From the UHGV virus genome UHGV-0075699: a stretch of 19,854 nucleotides of DNA; one strand, written 5' to 3'. This document shows positions 5,226-19,050 of the stretch, one piece after another (position 1 is the first letter of the stretch; the number at the start of each line of letters is the position of its first letter). This DNA comes from a virus. The notes beneath the pieces were generated by a model. That model did no database searches, was not told the DNA's origin, and was given only the letters and a program-made list of their open reading frames with translations. Both the position numbers and the translations under genes were made by a program.

Positions 5226-5945
5226 TTAATCACATTTTTCCGTTCTGACCTCTTCTATTTGCTCATGATATGTGTAGATGTTCTGCAATGCGTTGTTATC
5301 CATCTCAATGAAAGCCGTTTTAAGTCGTTCCCAATGCCCGGCATAAACCCTTTTCCAGGTTGAGCGGTCAACTGAAACCATACGCGCCAGAGCTGCGCCA
5401 GCGTAGGTTTTATACGTCTCATTATTCCGGGTCGCTGCAACCTCCTGGCCAGCCAGCCAGACCAGCCCCACAAGCTTTTTTATTACTCTCGATTGGATCG
5501 CCCTGCCTACTTGATAGTTCTGATATTCAGTCCAGACGTGTTCACACATCAGCGTCTGGTAACGGAAATTTAGATCGAAGCCATAGCAATAGCGCACCCA
5601 TGCCTGGTGATGTTCTTCCAGCAGGTTTACAGCGCGCCTCCACGGTGAATAACCGAATTCAATATCATTGATGGGCGGCATTGGCCGGCGGCGGCTGCGG
5701 GTCTCCATCACATAAACTGGAGTAGTCAGTGCCTTAACCACCGACGGGCCACAACCAATCCCCCCTTCCAGATCGACAAGATTGCGAGAGCACCGCGGAT
5801 TTTTATTCTTATCTGCCGGTGGGTTCTCGCTGAATGCCTCGAGTTGTCCCTTTGTTGCGCCGGATAAATCCAACAACGCTCGACGCACTTCAATACGGGT
5901 ATATTCCAGGTTTTGTAGGTTCATACTGCTCAACGCTCCATACAC
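5226..5945 (-). CDS. Probable late antiterminator Q (Qin/82-type Phage_antitermQ-like)
   Basis: 239-aa ORF located exactly where Q sits in lambdoid phages (after the nin-region genes, directly before a promoter-terminator pair and the lysis cassette). Assignment rests mainly on position and size; start could be GTG 5945 or ATG 5924. Confidence 0.5.
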   Translation of the reverse strand: MYGALSSMNLQNLEYTRIEVRRALLDLSGATKGQLEAFSENPPADKNKNPRCSRNLVDLEGGIGCGPSVVKALTTPVYVMETRSRRRPMPPINDIEFGYSPWRRAVNLLEEHHQAWVRYCYGFDLNFRYQTLMCEHVWTEYQNYQVGRAIQSRVIKKLVGLVWLAGQEVAATRNNETYKTYAGAALARMVSVDRSTWKRVYAGHWERLKTAFIEMDNNALQNIYTYHEQIEEVRTEKCD

Positions 5946-12488: not shown

Positions 12489-12532
12489 GGTTCCCCCCCT
12501 TTTTCTGTGGTTCTTGCTGTTGCAAGTACCTG

Positions 12533-12733
12533 TTATGTTTTGGAATAGATATCTGGCCTAAGCTGCGATCTGGTGATGGCACCGGAGGTGCTTTTCTCCA
12601 ACTTTTTTGCTAGGTCAAAACCAGCTTTCTTGTAGCCATTGAAAACCAAACGTAGGTAACCGGTAGTGGAGCCAACGTTTGTTGCTAATTTGCTCTGTTG
12701 TTCTTTGGTTAATGAATCCCAAAACTCTTTCAT
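12533..12733 (-). CDS. Cro-like repressor (YdaS-type HTH)
   Basis: 66-aa protein from the ATG at 12733 (MKEFWDSLTKEQQSKLATNVGSTTGYLRLVFNGYKKAGFDLAKKLEKSTSGAITRSQLRPDIY), strong AGGAGG SD 7 nt upstream; divergent from the CI repressor gene across an operator-rich intergenic region. Confidence 0.7.
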   Translation of the reverse strand: MKEFWDSLTKEQQSKLATNVGSTTGYLRLVFNGYKKAGFDLAKKLEKSTSGAITRSQLRPDIYSKT

Positions 12734-12820
12734 ATATGTACCTCCTGTGTACATATTACACGAAAGAAATGAACCTTCAAGGTACTTGTACCTTTACGGT
12801 ACACGCGGTTTAATTTCCCT
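12734..12820. promoter_or_regulatory. OR-like divergent promoter/operator region between cro and cI
   Basis: Palindromes ATATGTAC-N7-GTACATAT (12734-12756) and AAGGTAC-TT-GTACCTT (12779-12794). Candidate pR on minus (-35 TTGAAG 12775-12780, -10 TAATAT 12753-12758) and candidate pRM on plus (-35 TTGTAC 12786-12791, -10 TTTAAT 12809-12814) that would start at or next to the cI ATG (leaderless). Confidence 0.55.
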
Positions 12821-13495
12821 ATGAAAACAATCCAGGAAATCAGGCGTTTAAACGCCAGAAAGTTGAGAGATGGTGTTGGTGGAAATACTTTTTTTGCCAA
12901 TATGATTGATCGCGAGCCTACTCAAACAAGCCGGTTCATGGGGGACGGCGCGACAAAAAACATCGGCGATGCTATGGCAAGGCACATTGAAAAATGTTTC
13001 GACTTGCCAACTGGGTGGTTAGATCAAGAACACCAAACCACAAACGTGGCAAAGGCCCCTGATGTCTCCGATACAAATAGAAATATCACGATGGTTCCGG
13101 TTATATCCTGGGTACAGGCAGGAGCATGGACCGAAGTTGGTTATGCTGAGGTAGATTTGAATAGTACGGAAAACTATCCCTGTCCTGTCCCTTGTGGCCC
13201 GATGACATACATCCTTCGAGTAATTGGCGACTCCATGATCGATGAGTATCGCCCTGGTGATATGATTTTTGTTGACCCTGAGGTCCCCGCAGTCCATGGC
13301 GATGATGTTATCGCTTTGATGCACGACTCTGGAGAAACAACATTTAAGCGCCTGATTGAAGATGCCGGTAACCGTTATTTAAAAGCTCTTAATTCGAACT
13401 GGCCTGAACCCTATATAAAAATCAACGGTAATTGCTCAATCATTGGAACCGTGATTTTTTCAGGAAAACCAAGAAGATATAGAATAAAAAATTAA
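12821..13495 (+). CDS. CI-type prophage repressor (N-terminal HTH, C-terminal LexA-like S24 peptidase domain)
   Basis: C-terminal domain has the Ser-Lys dyad context (VIGDSM ... TFKRL) of S24 autocleaving repressors; N-terminal region is a small DNA-binding domain; divergent from cro; followed by a strong terminator. Confidence 0.85.
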   Translation: MKTIQEIRRLNARKLRDGVGGNTFFANMIDREPTQTSRFMGDGATKNIGDAMARHIEKCFDLPTGWLDQEHQTTNVAKAPDVSDTNRNITMVPVISWVQAGAWTEVGYAEVDLNSTENYPCPVPCGPMTYILRVIGDSMIDEYRPGDMIFVDPEVPAVHGDDVIALMHDSGETTFKRLIEDAGNRYLKALNSNWPEPYIKINGNCSIIGTVIFSGKPRRYRIKN

Positions 13496-13505
13496 TCCTT
13501 CCCTC

Positions 13506-13530
13506 AAAACCTGCTGCGGCAGGTTTTTTT
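13506..13530 (+). terminator. Rho-independent terminator of cI
   Basis: AAAACCTGCTGCGGCAGGTTTTTTT: perfect hairpin (CCTGC-UGC-GCAGG) flanked by an A-run and a 7-T run, 11 nt after the cI stop. Confidence 0.75.
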
Positions 13531-13534
13531 ACGC

Positions 13535-13570
13535 TTGACAATGTACCTATCAGATACATAATGTACCTAA
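13535..13570 (+). promoter_or_regulatory. pL-like early-left promoter with operator repeats
   Basis: TTGACA (13535-13540), 16-bp spacer, CATAAT (13557-13562); two copies of ATGTACCTA (13541-13549 and 13561-13569) overlap the spacer and start region. The same TGTACCT motif occurs in the OR palindromes. Confidence 0.55.
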
Positions 13571-14005
13571 AAGAAACAACATGAAAGCGCATTCCATCTT
13601 CATCCGTCGTGGGGACTGGTTTGTTACTGAAGGAGTGCGCTTCCAGTTGTGGTAATTGCGGCTATGCGCACGTGACGAGCCAAACCCGTTCAATGAATGC
13701 GTTTCCGGGTAGTGTACGTCGCCGGTTATGGCTTAACCCGGCAGGTGGAGGCAAGGGCTTTACCCGGGCGGGTGGAGCCCCCCCCGCCACAACTCGAATT
13801 GCTGTGTGTAGTCTTTGCCCAGTCTCCCCGATGGGCCCTTTTTTTACACAACAGGAAAGAGCACCGCCGGCGCCGGGAACTAACCCAGTCCGGATCCGGG
13901 TTCAAAGTGTGGACCCTCTCTCCTTCAGGCTCTGAACTGGTGCTCTCCCCTGTTGTGTATGGAGAAACTAATGGCGGTGGCAGCCGCCTTTCGAGAGGGT
14001 AAACC

Positions 14006-14377
14006 ATGAGTAATGATCGTATGACAGTCGTACCCGATTTCCTGGGTGAGCTGGACGCCGGCGTGTTCATGAACAAGATTGCGGCGGCTCTTAATACCAC
14101 CGCGCTCGGCGTTCTGAACAACGGCAACAAAGGCAAGGTAGTCCTCACCTTTGATTTTGAGCGTATGGGCAACTCTGTTGAAGAGAAGCGCGTCAAGATT
14201 AAGCACAAGCTGAACTACAGCACACCAACTCCCCGTGGCAAAGCGTCGGAAGAGGACACCACCGAAACACCAATGTGGGTCAACAAAGGCGGAAAGCTCA
14301 CCATCCTGCAGGAAGATCAGGGGCAGCTGTTCGGGATCACCGGCACGGTGGATGGAAAGCTTAAAGCGGCTCAGTGA
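14006..14377 (+). CDS. Hypothetical early-left protein (123 aa), YfdP-like by size and position
   Basis: ORF with GAGGG RBS 7 nt upstream; first gene after the pL leader; followed by DUF2303-like and HD-domain genes in the order recalled for E. coli CPS-53 yfdP-yfdQ-yfdR. Confidence 0.5.
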   Translation: MSNDRMTVVPDFLGELDAGVFMNKIAAALNTTALGVLNNGNKGKVVLTFDFERMGNSVEEKRVKIKHKLNYSTPTPRGKASEEDTTETPMWVNKGGKLTILQEDQGQLFGITGTVDGKLKAAQ

Positions 14378-14433: not shown

Positions 14434-15261
14434 ATGTCTCAGTTAGACAGCGGTACTTTTCAGCAGGTTAAAGACCTGGTGCTTTCCGGTTATCACCTGA
14501 ACGATATCCACGGTCTGGCCTGTCCGACGACCATTCTCCCGGAGGGAACCGAGGTCGCGAGTCTTGAGCGTTTCTCCCTGGAACGCTTCCGCTTCCGTGG
14601 CGCTATGGACACTACCAGCATTGATGATTTCGTTCGCTATTCCGCTGGCTATGCCAAAGAAGATGAAAAAGCACGTTGCTTCATCGATGCCGATAACATG
14701 CTGGCGCGCTCTATCTTCAACATCGGTACGCTGGATAACCCAGGCCACGCTGATAACGTCGCGTCAATCAAACTGAAAAAAACCGCCCCATTCCGCGCGC
14801 TGCTGTCGATCAACGGCGATCACCTTAATCAGAAGCAAATCGCCGAATGGCTGGAAGACTGGAGTGATTACCTTATTGCGTTCGATGCCGACGGCAAAAC
14901 GATGAAAATCGCCCAGGCAGCACAGGCAGTTCGCCGCGTCACCATTCAGCAAACTAACGCCTCCGATCATGAGGATGGTGATTTCAGTGGCAAAAAATCG
15001 CTGATGCAGAGTATCGAAGCCAGCAGTAAAGACGTGATGCCGGTAGCGTTCGAGTTCAAATGTGTGCCGTATGAAGGACTCGGCGAACGTGCATTCAGCC
15101 TGCGCAACAGTCTGCTGAAAAGTTCTGACCCGGTATTCGTCCTGCGTATCGTCCAGCTGGAAGCCCAGGAAGAAGCTATCGCTAATGAGTTCCGCGATCT
15201 GCTGACTGGTAAGTTCGACGGCAAGCCAGTGGAAACCTTTATCGGCAACTTCAAAGCCTGA
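14434..15261 (+). CDS. DUF2303-like protein (YfdQ-like), 275 aa
   Basis: ORF with TAAGGAA RBS; size and gene order correspond to the recalled CPS-53 yfdQ; no catalytic motif recognised by eye. Confidence 0.5.
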   Translation: MSQLDSGTFQQVKDLVLSGYHLNDIHGLACPTTILPEGTEVASLERFSLERFRFRGAMDTTSIDDFVRYSAGYAKEDEKARCFIDADNMLARSIFNIGTLDNPGHADNVASIKLKKTAPFRALLSINGDHLNQKQIAEWLEDWSDYLIAFDADGKTMKIAQAAQAVRRVTIQQTNASDHEDGDFSGKKSLMQSIEASSKDVMPVAFEFKCVPYEGLGERAFSLRNSLLKSSDPVFVLRIVQLEAQEEAIANEFRDLLTGKFDGKPVETFIGNFKA

Positions 15262-17659: not shown

Positions 17660-17869
17660 ATGGCAAAACTAATGAAGGCGAGTCAATGGGGCAAACGCGA
17701 ATTTGCCAAAGACTCTATTCCGGATAACCGAACCATTAAACGTTGGGTTGAAAATGGGCTACTCACAGGGAAGATCGTCGACGGTTCTGTTTTCGTCTTC
17801 GAGTCTGAAAAATGGGGAGTCGACTCAATGGTTAATCATACGGTTCGACAGCTAATAAATGAAGGTTGA
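17660..17869 (+). CDS. xis: Excisionase (Xis-like DNA-binding protein)
   Basis: 69-aa protein immediately upstream of and overlapping int; segment NRTIKRWVENGLLTGKIVDGSVFVFES resembles lambda Xis (ETVRRWVRECRIFPPPVKDGREYLFHES). Confidence 0.65.
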   Translation: MAKLMKASQWGKREFAKDSIPDNRTIKRWVENGLLTGKIVDGSVFVFESEKWGVDSMVNHTVRQLINEG

Positions 17870-17871
17870 CC

Positions 17872-19050
17872 ATGGCAGCCAGACCAAGAAAAAGAGAATA
17901 TCGCCACCTTCCAGAATATCTTTTATTTGATAAAGATCGCGGTGTTTATAAATTTACTCTTATAACAGGAAAGAAAAAGAACCTTGGTAAAGATCGAGCT
18001 ATGGCGATTGCTGTAGCTCGCGAATACAACCTAAGAATGAGACCATTAAACGTACCATCTGTTGATGTATTAATTAGGGAATCAGGTGGTATCGCTGGTG
18101 AGGCCAAACCATTTGCTGAATATGTAGACCATATTATGAACCGAGCAATTGAGAATGAGCGGCCATCACAAAATACCCTCGACGATTGGAATAATGATGC
18201 CATTCGTGTGAAAGAATTTTTTATCAATATTCCCGCTTGCGATATTGAACTGGAGCATGTAAACGCCTACATAAACCATTATCATGCTGAAGCTTCAGCA
18301 AACGTACAGAATAGGAAAGTCAGCTTCCTTAAAAAACTTTTCTCCTATGCGGTCGATGAATCATTAATGTTTGATAACCCGGCCACACGTAAAAAGATGC
18401 GCAGGACTGAGGAGAAGAAACGGCAGCGCCTGTCACTCGAACACTTTAAAGCCATCAGACGCGCCGCCGAGCCATGGCTACGGACTGCGATGGATTTAGC
18501 ATTGCAGACGACGCATGCGCGCCTTGAGGTGTCACGAATCCGATATTCAATCAGTGAGCCAAAAGATGGCGTCTGCGGGTGTGTATGGCTTGCACAGCCG
18601 GAAAACGGGATTTATGGCACGCTGTACATTCACCGCCAGAAAGTACAGAAGAAAGAGGCCTCGCATGTCGCAATCCCGATCGGGGAAGAGTTGAAGCGGA
18701 TTATTGACGAAAGCCGCGATAATGTAGCCAGCCCGTTTATCGTTCACCGGATTCCAGATAGGCAGGTTAAGCGTAGTAAAGAAGTTTCACACCCAACACA
18801 GGTTGCGCCGGACTATCTGAGCCGGTCCTTTTCAGCGGTGCGCGACAAACTTGGCTTATGCGACAAACTGGCGATGGACGAAAGACCAACCTTTCACGAA
18901 ATTCGAGCGCTGGCCGCCCATCTTTTTGATCAGCAAGGTATCGATCCGCAAGGACGAATGGCGCACAGTGATGCGAAGTCGACCAAGATTTACACGCAAA
19001 ACCATATCGATTGGGTTGTCGTTCCACATGGTGAAATTAAAGCCGGATAA
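17872..19050 (+). CDS. int: Tyrosine integrase (lambda Int family)
   Basis: C-terminal catalytic region contains PTFHEIRALAAHLF (H-x-x-R box, compare lambda PTFHELRSLSARLY) and the tyrosine-containing STKIYTQNH; arm-binding-type basic N-terminus. Start placed at ATG 17872 (GAAGG RBS); ORF track begins at TTG 17866. Lies next to the tRNA-derived att core. Confidence 0.9.
   Translation: MAARPRKREYRHLPEYLLFDKDRGVYKFTLITGKKKNLGKDRAMAIAVAREYNLRMRPLNVPSVDVLIRESGGIAGEAKPFAEYVDHIMNRAIENERPSQNTLDDWNNDAIRVKEFFINIPACDIELEHVNAYINHYHAEASANVQNRKVSFLKKLFSYAVDESLMFDNPATRKKMRRTEEKKRQRLSLEHFKAIRRAAEPWLRTAMDLALQTTHARLEVSRIRYSISEPKDGVCGCVWLAQPENGIYGTLYIHRQKVQKKEASHVAIPIGEELKRIIDESRDNVASPFIVHRIPDRQVKRSKEVSHPTQVAPDYLSRSFSAVRDKLGLCDKLAMDERPTFHEIRALAAHLFDQQGIDPQGRMAHSDAKSTKIYTQNHIDWVVVPHGEIKAG

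Follow-up and report, generated by a model that had tools for sequence, protein, structure and literature searches.

A modular non-coding leader in the early-left operon of a lambdoid prophage joins a pseudoknotted tRNA-like RNA domain to a copy of the 3′ half of RprA

The early-left operon of the lambdoid prophage in UHGV virus genome UHGV-0075699 (a 19,854-nucleotide stretch, all of which was analyzed and which we call the window) begins with a leader at 13563–14005 on the plus strand, between a pL-like promoter and the first early-left gene. We found that this leader is non-coding and is an ordered chain of conserved RNA structures, one of which (M2) is homologous to the spacer between dicF and dicB and another of which (M3) copies the last ∼47 to 50 nt of the host small RNA (sRNA) RprA, comprising its seed, terminator stem, and U-run. 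We consider it probable that the whole represents a modular dicBF-type early-operon leader which, upon induction, yields an RprA-mimicking sRNA and leaves the downstream genes in need of read-through. Prophage early-operon sRNAs are a known kind of element, with DicF as the model; what appears to be new is an RprA-type seed and terminator on a dicBF-type scaffold and the grouping of M2, the dicF–dicB spacer, and STnc100/PasD in one family.

Results

The leader is a chain of conserved non-coding RNA modules

The original prediction had described the leader as GC-rich, packed with palindromes, and devoid of a convincing gene, and most of the features it listed lay where it had placed them or at most 1 nt away. 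GC content was 0.54 in 13550–13849 and 0.60 in 13700–13999, compared with 0.41 to 0.47 in 12500–13699, and the plus-strand leader RNA folded to −184.9 kcal/mol versus −157.2 ± 7.0 kcal/mol for 100 dinucleotide shuffles (z −3.97), none of which was as good. Four of the listed palindromes were read again, were real, and could be assigned: GCCGG/CCGGC is helix P3 of M2; GGCGGG/CCCGCC falls inside a window-specific insertion of M2; GGGCCC followed by seven T belongs to the terminator stem GCCCAGUC/GAUGGGC, of which it forms the 3′ arm, together with the U-run; and GGCGG-TGGCAG-CCGCC is M5, at 13973–13988, 1 nt from its predicted position. By position, GCCGGCGCCGGG and CCGGATCCGG fall in the insert of M4. 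What had been missed were two 20-bp long-range helices (13576–95/13632–50 and 13846–65/13939–58), the RprA identity of M3, and the fact that a predicted 24-codon open reading frame (ORF) at 13581–13655 is the 5′ arm and loop of hairpin M1.

Close relatives of the leader were taken from viral contigs, genomes, and GenBank phages. In BLAST comparisons with phages, separate segments of the leader had separate relatives, and the alignments, when read, revealed a chain of modules, each closed by ACAAC...GUUGU. The following features were assigned in the leader.

13576–13650, plus strand: M1, a long hairpin with arms ACAACAUGAAAGCGCAUUCC and GGAGUGCGCUUCCAGUUGU and a 36-nt apical part, from minimum free energy (MFE) and centroid folds
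13646–13793, plus strand: M2, a five-helix pseudoknotted tRNA-like domain, from a 36-sequence alignment and covariance model R1
13754–13780, plus strand: an insertion of 27 nt (AGGGCTTTACCCGGGCGGGTGGAGCCC, then a run of C) that interrupts the P4 loop of M2 and holds the GGCGGG/CCCGCC palindrome
13794–13846, plus strand: M3, a small-RNA module with an unpaired seed and an intrinsic terminator
13795–13800, plus strand: RNase-E-like CGA↓AUU in M3, a sequence signal
13801–13815, plus strand: the unpaired seed of M3, GCUGUGUGUAGUC(UU)
13817–13836, plus strand: the terminator hairpin of M3, with its U-run at 13839–13845
13846–13958, plus strand: M4, a 20-bp helix ACACAACAGGAAAGAGCACC/GGUGCUCUCCCCUGUUGUGU with two A·C mismatches in the window and a 73-nt structured insert, from folds
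13973–13988, plus strand: M5, 17 nt 5′ of the start codon, the hairpin GGCGG-UGGCAG-CCGCC, whose loop is conserved

The three predicted ORFs (13581–13655, 13609–13935, and 13697–14002) were present as listed, and the comparison proposed for them revealed frame-switching indels among close relatives in place of codon conservation. A 1-nt insertion inside M2 in L023, L039, L045, and L073 shifts the long open frame mid-ORF, the LLS leader carries 16-, 2-, and 1-nt indels as well as early stops in the frames, and the 24-codon ORF, which starts with ATG in the window, starts with GTG in L045 and LLS and has a 1-nt deletion after the ATG in L039. The frames also cross the intrinsic terminator and helices that covary at the RNA level, and a Pfam search with all three found no match. 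The leader of L110, that of the E. coli prophage L109, and, upstream of gene 39, that of LLS have no gene call; in the Flotzy and Eeyore records, “hypothetical protein” calls lie under the leader match. Since relatives break the frames, protein coding is excluded, and we conclude from these alignments that the leader encodes no protein. The suggestion of a structured non-coding RNA was thus borne out by the shuffle test, by helices covarying across relatives, and by the lack of a conserved frame, and the proposed check for conserved secondary structure found it in abundance.

M3 reproduces the processed form of RprA

Rfam had been named as a further check, and it succeeded in part: no family reached its gathering threshold in the window, but there was a sub-threshold match to RprA (RF00034; 45.7 bits, E 1.9e-4, gathering score 70), whose confident alignment is limited to the 3′ half of the 108-position model. 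Against the published RprA (ACAAC..CGAAUUGCUGUGUGUAGUCUUUGCCCA..UCUCCC..CGAUGGG..CUUUUUUU), M3 showed 52 identical aligned bases with no substitutions and four small indels, and it matched the 3′ seed GCUGUGUGUAGUCUUUGCCC and the terminator of the processed 47-nt form. The CGAAUU context around the presumed cut point is also common to M3 and RprA. RNase E cuts RprA to a shorter form (PMC6202311), and the last 47 nt of RprA coexist with the full-length RNA and regulate alone (PMC9262595). The 5′ stem-loops of RprA and its pairing region at nt ∼30 to 70 were not found in the window, where that stretch is, in a weak alignment, the 3′ part of M2.

By BLAST, the annotated rprA gene was found in 5424 of 5426 E. 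coli genomes with 90.9% identity to M3 over 54 nt. A query with the RprA 3′ half hit 5889 places in 5425 E. coli records, up to three per genome, which means several hundred extra copies beyond rprA; one of these (L109) is a prophage leader of the LLS type. The settings differ: M3 is carried by a prophage behind a pL-type promoter under repressor control, whereas rprA, which is controlled by Rcs, is annotated in essentially every E. coli genome as a chromosomal sRNA gene that stands alone. Descent could have run either way, phage from host or host from phage. A literature search on RprA-like, RprA-homologous, or phage-encoded RprA RNAs and on the element sequences found no description.

The 13-mer GCTGTGTGTAGTC, with up to two mismatches allowed, followed M2 in 45 of 87 distinct loci at a distance of 6 to 29 nt, except in L079 (169 nt). 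Among 31 distinct M3 variants, the seed was identical in 26 and carried a single substitution in the other five. Not more than 3 nt after it came a GC hairpin with a U-run; the stems were of at least four unrelated types, and the seed lay outside the hairpin. Some variants keep the seed on a DicF-like terminator. A fixed seed on a drifting terminator is, as judged from aligned sequences, the signature of a base-pairing sRNA. An RNAduplex scan of the window for targets of the seed gave unremarkable energies only.

M2 is a pseudoknotted domain with a tRNA-like topology

In the comparative fold of M2, P1 (GUUGUGGU/GCCACAAC, 8 bp) joins both ends of the domain, and the other helices are P1a, P2 (GACG/CGUC), P3 (GCCGG/CCGGC), and P4 (GGUGG-AGGCA-CCACC); a four-base pseudoknot pairs AGCC, in the strand after P2, with GGCU in the P3 loop. 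Over the 36 sequences, 96.6% of cells were paired, nine pairs showed double changes, and none of 500 shuffles was as good; as a control, slid registers were 28 to 56% paired. The pseudoknot itself covaries (AGCC/GGCU, GGCC/GGCC, GACC/GGUC, and GGCU/AGCC). The topology is like that of a class II tRNA cloverleaf, with P1 contiguous with a 5-bp T-like arm, short linkers, and five helices at one junction. M2 has no CCA end and no apparent anticodon-like arm; in the window, ARAGORN called no tRNA or tmRNA and Rfam no tRNA.

The covariance model of M2, R1, scored 109.8 bits on the plus strand of the window versus 9.3 bits on the minus strand, and a scan of the whole 19.8 kb detected no second copy, none in the pR operon and none near the Q gene. 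An exact 17-mer from the 5′ end of M2 occurred in 103 viral-contig stretches, and M2 is present in more than 100 phage and prophage loci. An independent 19-mer from the 3′ end, with the 5′ segment still conserved, retrieved M2 from Kluyvera, Scandinavium, Klebsiella, Enterobacter, Buttiauxella, Silvania, Raoultella, Pseudocitrobacter, and Citrobacter. In RefSeq and GenBank records M2 is without annotation.

The 27-nt insertion in the window copy resembles a diverged partial duplication of the adjacent P3′–P4 segment. L110 (L110:3924–3946), whose repressor is identical and whose leader is otherwise nearly the same, lacks it, as do all other aligned copies, and a human-gut metagenome contig (L111) stops at the very base where the insertion begins to diverge from them. 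The extra sequence may be genuine or may reflect an assembly artefact at a GC-rich hairpin.

The window leader and the Qin dicBF leader share one plan

R1 also matched four more distant M2-type elements at 46 to 51 bits: the dicF–dicB spacers of Qin in K-12 MG1655 (46.3 bits) and of strain 143 (50.5 bits), an element in phage SfV (51.1 bits), and a divergent copy in the P1-like phage D6 (51 bits). The strain 143 element is flanked by a bona fide DicF and by dicB and lies downstream of a LexA-family repressor; the genuine DicF scored 75 bits (L138), the gathering score of RF00039 being 48. The relationship of the leader to Qin was seen only through the covariance model, as blastn of the leader against K-12 dicBF returned nothing at 1e-3.

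In K-12 Qin (L140 943–1351), the order is an M1-type hairpin (AUAACGCGAAAGCGCAUGG...CCGUGCGCUUCCGGUUGUGG), a domain that GUUGUGGC/GCUGCAAC closes, DicF and its terminator, the M2-type domain (1224–1351), and dicB, and we conclude that the K-12 ydfC–dicB stretch has the same plan as M1–M2–M3–M4–gene in the window. In both the window family and Qin-type prophages, an early operon is transcribed away from the immunity repressor, and an sRNA made of an unpaired seed and its own intrinsic terminator precedes the first early gene, with M1-type hairpin, closed domain, sRNA, and closed domain in the same order; many M3 variants, moreover, carry a DicF-like terminator. The two leaders differ in several respects. 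The window seed is GCUGUGUGUAGUC while that of DicF is UUUCUGGUGAC, so ftsZ is not an expected target; the window terminator is of the RprA type; the M2-type domain is 5′ of the sRNA in the window and 3′ of it in Qin; the downstream genes are yfdP and yfdQ rather than dicB; and the window has no small ORFs (ydfABC) between promoter and RNA.

DicF is made by early termination and a 5′ cut by RNase E, and when RNase III processes read-through RNA, a 72-nt form results (PMC9438474). Counted from the K-12 DicF start, 72 nt would end 1 nt before P1 of the M2-type domain, with a tolerance of about ±2 nt. In the window, the counterparts of this maturation (CGA↓AUU, terminator, and 20-bp helices) are sequence signals only.

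The M2-type elements also lead to STnc100 (RF02076, gathering score 47). Elements matched by R1 scored 34.7 to 39.6 bits for this family, and the two of the four that were also scanned with Rfam (D6 and strain 143) were sub-threshold STnc100 matches, that of D6 at 39.6 bits. Side-by-side model alignments showed a common closing helix, AAU linker, and inner arms, a first hairpin with GCGGCU·GCGCAC, and a last hairpin whose loop is GGAGGCACC. STnc100 and PasD, both prophage sRNAs, are judged to have a common ancestor, PasD was recovered with Hfq by ligating and sequencing interacting RNAs (RIL-seq), and PasD typically lies near Q and lysis genes while STnc100 has Fels-1 prophage genes as neighbors (Zhu, Shabalina and Storz, bioRxiv 10.64898/2026.05.13.724894). 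Like M2, both are prophage-borne, and all Pas sRNAs end in a terminator; they differ from M2, which sits in a pL leader, and the seeds differ. BLAST located the D6 element in 4673 of the 5426 complete E. coli genomes, with a median of two occurrences per genome, and this STnc100-like element is mostly unannotated in RefSeq and GenBank records. M2, the dicF–dicB spacer, and STnc100/PasD thus appear, on these model alignments, to form one structured RNA family.

Long hairpins flank the M2–M3 core

M1 and M4 are both ∼20-bp hairpins with a conserved ACAAC/GUUGU base and variable inserts. M1-type hairpins, located by a duplex-energy search that allowed for a 1-nt bulge in the 5′ arm, stood directly 5′ of M2 in 52 of 58 distinct loci (duplex ≤ −20 kcal/mol; inserts of 1 to 214 nt). 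They fall into two register classes with 93% of cells paired, compared with 39 to 57% in slid registers, and show compensatory double changes at 10 to 12 of 17 pairs and a recurrent mismatch (A·C or U·U) 8 to 10 bp from the base. Their frequent U·G pairs fit an RNA made from the plus strand. M4 was picked up by cmscan on both strands as a long inverted repeat. Its helix is a perfect 20 bp in L110 through compensating changes on both arms, and compensatory changes also occur in LLS, Kp4866-6, and SfV, the base in SfV being ACAAAAC/GUUUUGU.

As had been predicted, the leader has no boxA: the consensus YGCTCTTWA with at most one mismatch had no plus-strand match in 13563–14005, and the 12 boxA-like matches in the whole window were below the chance expectation of 14.4. 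The 3′ arms of M1- and M4-type hairpins, which often read UGCUCUUUCC, were considered as boxA candidates and rejected, as the arm covaries with its partner, D6 has CGCCGUUUCC, and the leader holds no plus-strand consensus match.

M5 is preceded by the conserved single strand GUGUAUGGAGAAAC (13955–13968). It is kept in LLS, Kp4866-6, and ∼40 other loci, and a GACGG/CCGUC variant preserves the pairing. A 16-codon upstream ORF at 13959–14009 (peptide MEKLMAVAAAFREGKP), whose stop overlaps the yfdP start as ATGA, was rejected as a conserved gene: an extra A fuses it in frame to yfdP in L110, it is frame-shifted in LLS, and its start is ACG instead of ATG in Kp4866-6 and L045. Its nucleotides, including the M5 hairpin, are conserved; its peptide is not.

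In many relatives, the motif CCACC-N2-GCCUGAUGUGGUGAAAAG(A)CAGGC occurs directly before the CACAAC of M1 (L001 ∼2400–2440, L002 2465–2492, L139 2150–2190, and many IMG/VR loci). It could form an H-type pseudoknot (CCAC/GUGG and GCCUG/CAGGC), but the window, in which M1 adjoins the promoter, lacks it.

A single promoter serves the leader and the early-left genes

The window holds the immunity and early region, and the features around the leader are as follows.

12821–13495, plus strand: cI-like (S24/LexA-family) repressor gene
13508–13530, plus strand: intrinsic terminator of the repressor gene (stem 13508–14/13519–25, loop UGCG, U-run; read directly)
13535–13562, plus strand: pL-like sigma-70 promoter TTGACA-16-CATAAT, predicted start ∼13569
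13540–49 and 13560–69, no strand assigned: two copies of the operator-like direct repeat AATGTACCTA, read directly
13994–14377, plus strand: Shine-Dalgarno-like GAGAGGG and first early-left gene
14006–14377, plus strand: yfdP-like gene, the first early-left gene (Pfam YfdP on the identical L110 gene; LLS annotation)
14434–15261, plus strand: yfdQ/DUF2303 gene (Pfam DUF2303 on the identical L110 gene; LLS annotation)
5226–5945, minus strand: Q antiterminator gene (Pfam Phage_antiter_Q)

The pL-like promoter matches 11 of 12 consensus positions and is the top promoter-like site of the whole window. The AATGTACCTA copies, which flank and overlap the −35 and −10 hexamers, are candidate operators. 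SfV has the same cI, terminator, and promoter, and its homologous stretch is annotated as a putative rho-independent terminator after cI. That the early-left genes lack a promoter of their own, as the original prediction stated, was upheld by a scan from the pL-like promoter to 14006, in which no further promoter-like site was found; across the operon, a plus-strand scan detected no second promoter and no strong terminator besides that of M3. With a strong intrinsic terminator between the only promoter and these genes, the leader must influence their expression, in agreement with the control function that had been proposed for it.

After yfdP and yfdQ come HD hydrolase-like, exonuclease-like, and excisionase-like genes and then an integrase-like gene (17866–19050), the names of these last four being drawn from their translations and from comparison with LLS and L109. 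On the minus strand are cro-like, CII/CP76-family, replication, methylase, Q antiterminator, and lysis genes. A strong hairpin with a U-run (5136–5117, minus strand) lies within ∼90 nt after the Q gene, the usual pR′–tR′ layout, where a short constitutive RNA would arise.

The cassette travels with the yfdPQ operon

In ∼50 loci, an S24 repressor gene lay 0.75 to 2.3 kb upstream of M2 on the same strand; the repressors were 29 to 100% identical, and many immunity types are therefore represented. Likewise in ∼50 loci, yfdP and yfdQ lay 60 to 370 nt downstream of M2. In SfV (L139 1661–1957 and 2140–2560), the cassette is ∼600 nt from pL, behind orf33 (98 amino acids), which indicates that it travels with the yfdPQ operon and not with the promoter. 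The SfV cassette is unannotated, upstream of the yfdP-like orf32, and P4 of its M2 reads CCGGG-AGGCA-CCCGG, like the STnc100 consensus. In complete E. coli genomes, megablast of the leader returned essentially nothing.

In LASTA and D6-like phage-plasmids, M2 and M1-type hairpins occupy 400- to 650-nt non-coding stretches beside tRNA genes. These stretches (L003, Klebsiella phage LASTA, ∼1560–2135; L004, phage D6, ∼1790–2122 and 828–952) are unannotated and share, 5′ of the M1-type hairpin and M2, the blocks UGGCACAUGC...GUUAGCGG and GGAAUGUGCAAGCC and, before CACAAC, a hairpin with a GAAGAG loop. These stretches may constitute a single large structured RNA; no Rfam family matched in them. In a longer version of the leader, a tRNA-like element (L011:1800–1925) lies ∼130 nt upstream of M2, scores 40 bits for Rfam tRNA, above gathering, and has acceptor, D, and T arms with a 68-nt insert in place of the anticodon arm. 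In Kp4866-6 (L002), the matching hairpin insert holds T-arm-like GGTTCGATTCC motifs. The sister M3 variant of L011 aligns end to end with Rfam DicF (29.1 bits, E 0.012).

Discussion

The reading that we favor is that of a dicBF-type leader with an RprA-type sRNA. In the scheme that we infer for termination efficiency, RNase cuts, Hfq dependence, targets, and the role of M2, loss of the cI-like repressor would allow the pL-like promoter to transcribe M1, M2, and M3, and most polymerases would stop at the M3 terminator to give a primary RNA of ∼275 nt. On the model of RprA and DicF, RNase E would cut CGA↓AUU near 13797/98, and the long M1 and M4 helices and the acceptor-like P1 of M2 would be cut by RNase III and/or RNase P. 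The product would be an RprAproc-like RNA of ∼47 to 55 nt or a ∼200-nt M2–M3 RNA with the STnc100/PasD-like layout of core, seed, and terminator. M3, the one product to which a function can be assigned, would act as an Hfq-type base-pairing sRNA and, as a copy of the RprAproc seed and terminator, would let the phage impose part of the RprA regulon early in lytic growth, while M2 would be a compact tRNA-like pseudoknot that marks processing boundaries and/or stabilizes the RNA. The yfdP–yfdQ early-left genes would be expressed only from transcripts that read through M3, with M4 and M5 shaping the 5′ end and translation start of this mRNA and the transcripts trimmed at M4.

Several observations weigh against this scheme. 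The window does not reach the gathering score of RF00034, and neither DicF (RF00039) nor STnc100 (RF02076) has a match in it at E ≤ 10. Several well-studied targets of RprA, namely rpoS, hdeD, and the start region of narP, pair with its nt ∼30 to 70, which M3 lacks, so mimicry would cover only an RprAproc subset. The window copy of M2 has its 27-nt insertion and a U·C mismatch in an otherwise invariant P4. M2 lies beside tRNA genes in lytic-type and P1-like phages without seed or terminator, which implies that its role is not tied to M3. The MFE fold pairs 13660–70 with 13803–13, and the seed might be conserved for this intramolecular pairing. Finally, the coincidence of the 72-nt DicF end with the M2 boundary was computed from lengths given in a review and holds to within about ±2 nt.

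A bolder extension, which we put forward tentatively and regard as rather unlikely, is that M2-type domains and ACAAC/GUUGU hairpins form an unrecognized, tRNA-derived class of RNA “punctuation” modules that direct precise cleavage of leaders, by RNase P or III or by self-cleavage, like the tRNA punctuation of mitochondrial transcripts. The sRNA cargoes would then be interchangeable, with a DicF seed, an RprA seed, and tRNA-like inserts on one scaffold in temperate phages of Enterobacteriaceae and the RprA mimic as the cargo here.

The best surviving rival to the RprA-type sRNA leader, improbable in our judgment, is that M2 itself is the functional product, a stable tRNA-like or STnc100/PasD-type trans RNA (sRNA core, decoy, or substrate of tRNA-acting enzymes) to which M3 is an add-on. 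Its cloverleaf-like topology, with an acceptor-like P1 contiguous with the T-like P4, would suit such a product, as would the adjoining tRNA genes in LASTA and D6, the tRNA-like element, with its 68-nt insert, found in this type of leader, the STnc100 scores of elements that R1 matches, and the recovery of PasD, which its authors consider structurally related to STnc100, with Hfq. sRNAs of the 3′ETS-leuZ type are cut from tRNA operon spacers, and the P1 c4 and P4 CI leader RNAs are processed by RNase P; they have in common with the window a tRNA-like fold followed by a small regulatory RNA that ends at the operon terminator, with the boundary at an acceptor-like helix. The difference is that M2 is not a tRNA by ARAGORN, and Rfam C4 had no match. 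The P4 loop is disrupted in the window copy, STnc100 and PasD have no known function, and this proposal would add to the sRNA reading of M3 rather than exclude it.

The RNA antitermination element of the original prediction fared somewhat worse, and we give it only a slim chance. Here M2, alone or with M1, would be a put-like processive antiterminator that replaces N and carries polymerase through the M3 terminator and the operon. M2 is indeed promoter-proximal in the pL operon of a phage with Q but without an N-like gene, a strong terminator lies inside the leader, and the stems and loops of M2 are invariant, as expected for an RNA that binds protein or polymerase. In HK022, also a lambdoid phage without an antiterminator protein of the N type, put likewise is a structured RNA that closely follows pL. 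However, HK022 put consists of two simple stem-loops, present in both early operons, whereas the window, which runs from cro through Q to the lysis genes, has one multi-module cassette on the left side only, and that cassette contains a terminator while put only precedes terminators. Sensitive blastn (word size 7) of HK022 putL against the leader found nothing at E ≤ 10, R1 found nothing, and direct reading saw no resemblance. Qin-type prophages have the M2-type domain downstream of the sRNA terminator, and overriding that terminator cannot therefore be its conserved role. M2 stands among tRNA genes in LASTA and D6, the SfV cassette is ∼600 nt from pL behind an ORF, and the operon has no other strong plus-strand terminators to override. 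The leader also differs from lambda nutL in having no boxA on the transcribed strand, no assigned boxB, and no N gene. In lambda, RNase III processes the N leader between the promoter-proximal RNA signals and the first early-left gene, and the long helix of M4 is, by analogy, placed where that processing occurs.

It is still less likely that the leader is a cis-acting attenuator or riboswitch-like element in which M2 is a sensor that sets termination at M3 and the seed is conserved for pairing with 13660–13672. An aptamer-like, pseudoknotted, and highly conserved domain directly upstream of a terminator invites this view, MFE and centroid folds pair GCGGCUAUGCG (13660–70) with UGUGUGUAGUC (13803–13), and the P1-like D6 has the Watson-Crick complement AUAUAGCCGC after M2. 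The comparative fold, by contrast, gives 13658–13673 a hairpin of its own, P1a, with one double compensatory change; an LLS change in this segment is uncompensated in the seed; the proposed pairing leaves the terminator stem untouched; about half of the M2 loci have no seed or terminator after M2; and the identity with RprA, a known trans-acting sRNA, runs through the terminator. That one of the open frames encodes a small or N-like Arg-rich protein, as the resemblance of HNRKEHRRRRE (in 13697–14002) to an N-protein RNA-binding motif had suggested, is exceedingly improbable in view of the broken frames and absent Pfam match described above, although the frames are open in the window.

For the RprA-type leader that we favor, the consequences extend beyond this prophage. 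A non-coding RNA cassette, and not a missing gene, fills the N/nutL position in widespread N-less lambdoid prophages, found in Kluyvera, Klebsiella, Enterobacter, Citrobacter, Raoultella, and E. coli as well as in Shigella phage SfV. The uncharacterized dicF–dicB spacer of K-12 belongs to a conserved, covarying, pseudoknotted RNA family that appears to be related to STnc100/PasD, and the coincidence of the M2-type boundary with a known DicF processing site offers a handle on how prophage sRNAs are excised from operon transcripts. With the active 3′ half of a core host sRNA copied in a phage, there is a concrete and testable case of host-sRNA mimicry, which would tie prophage induction to the RprA network; if the tentative punctuation idea were also true, the RprA mimic released at induction would reprogram envelope-stress and biofilm regulation.

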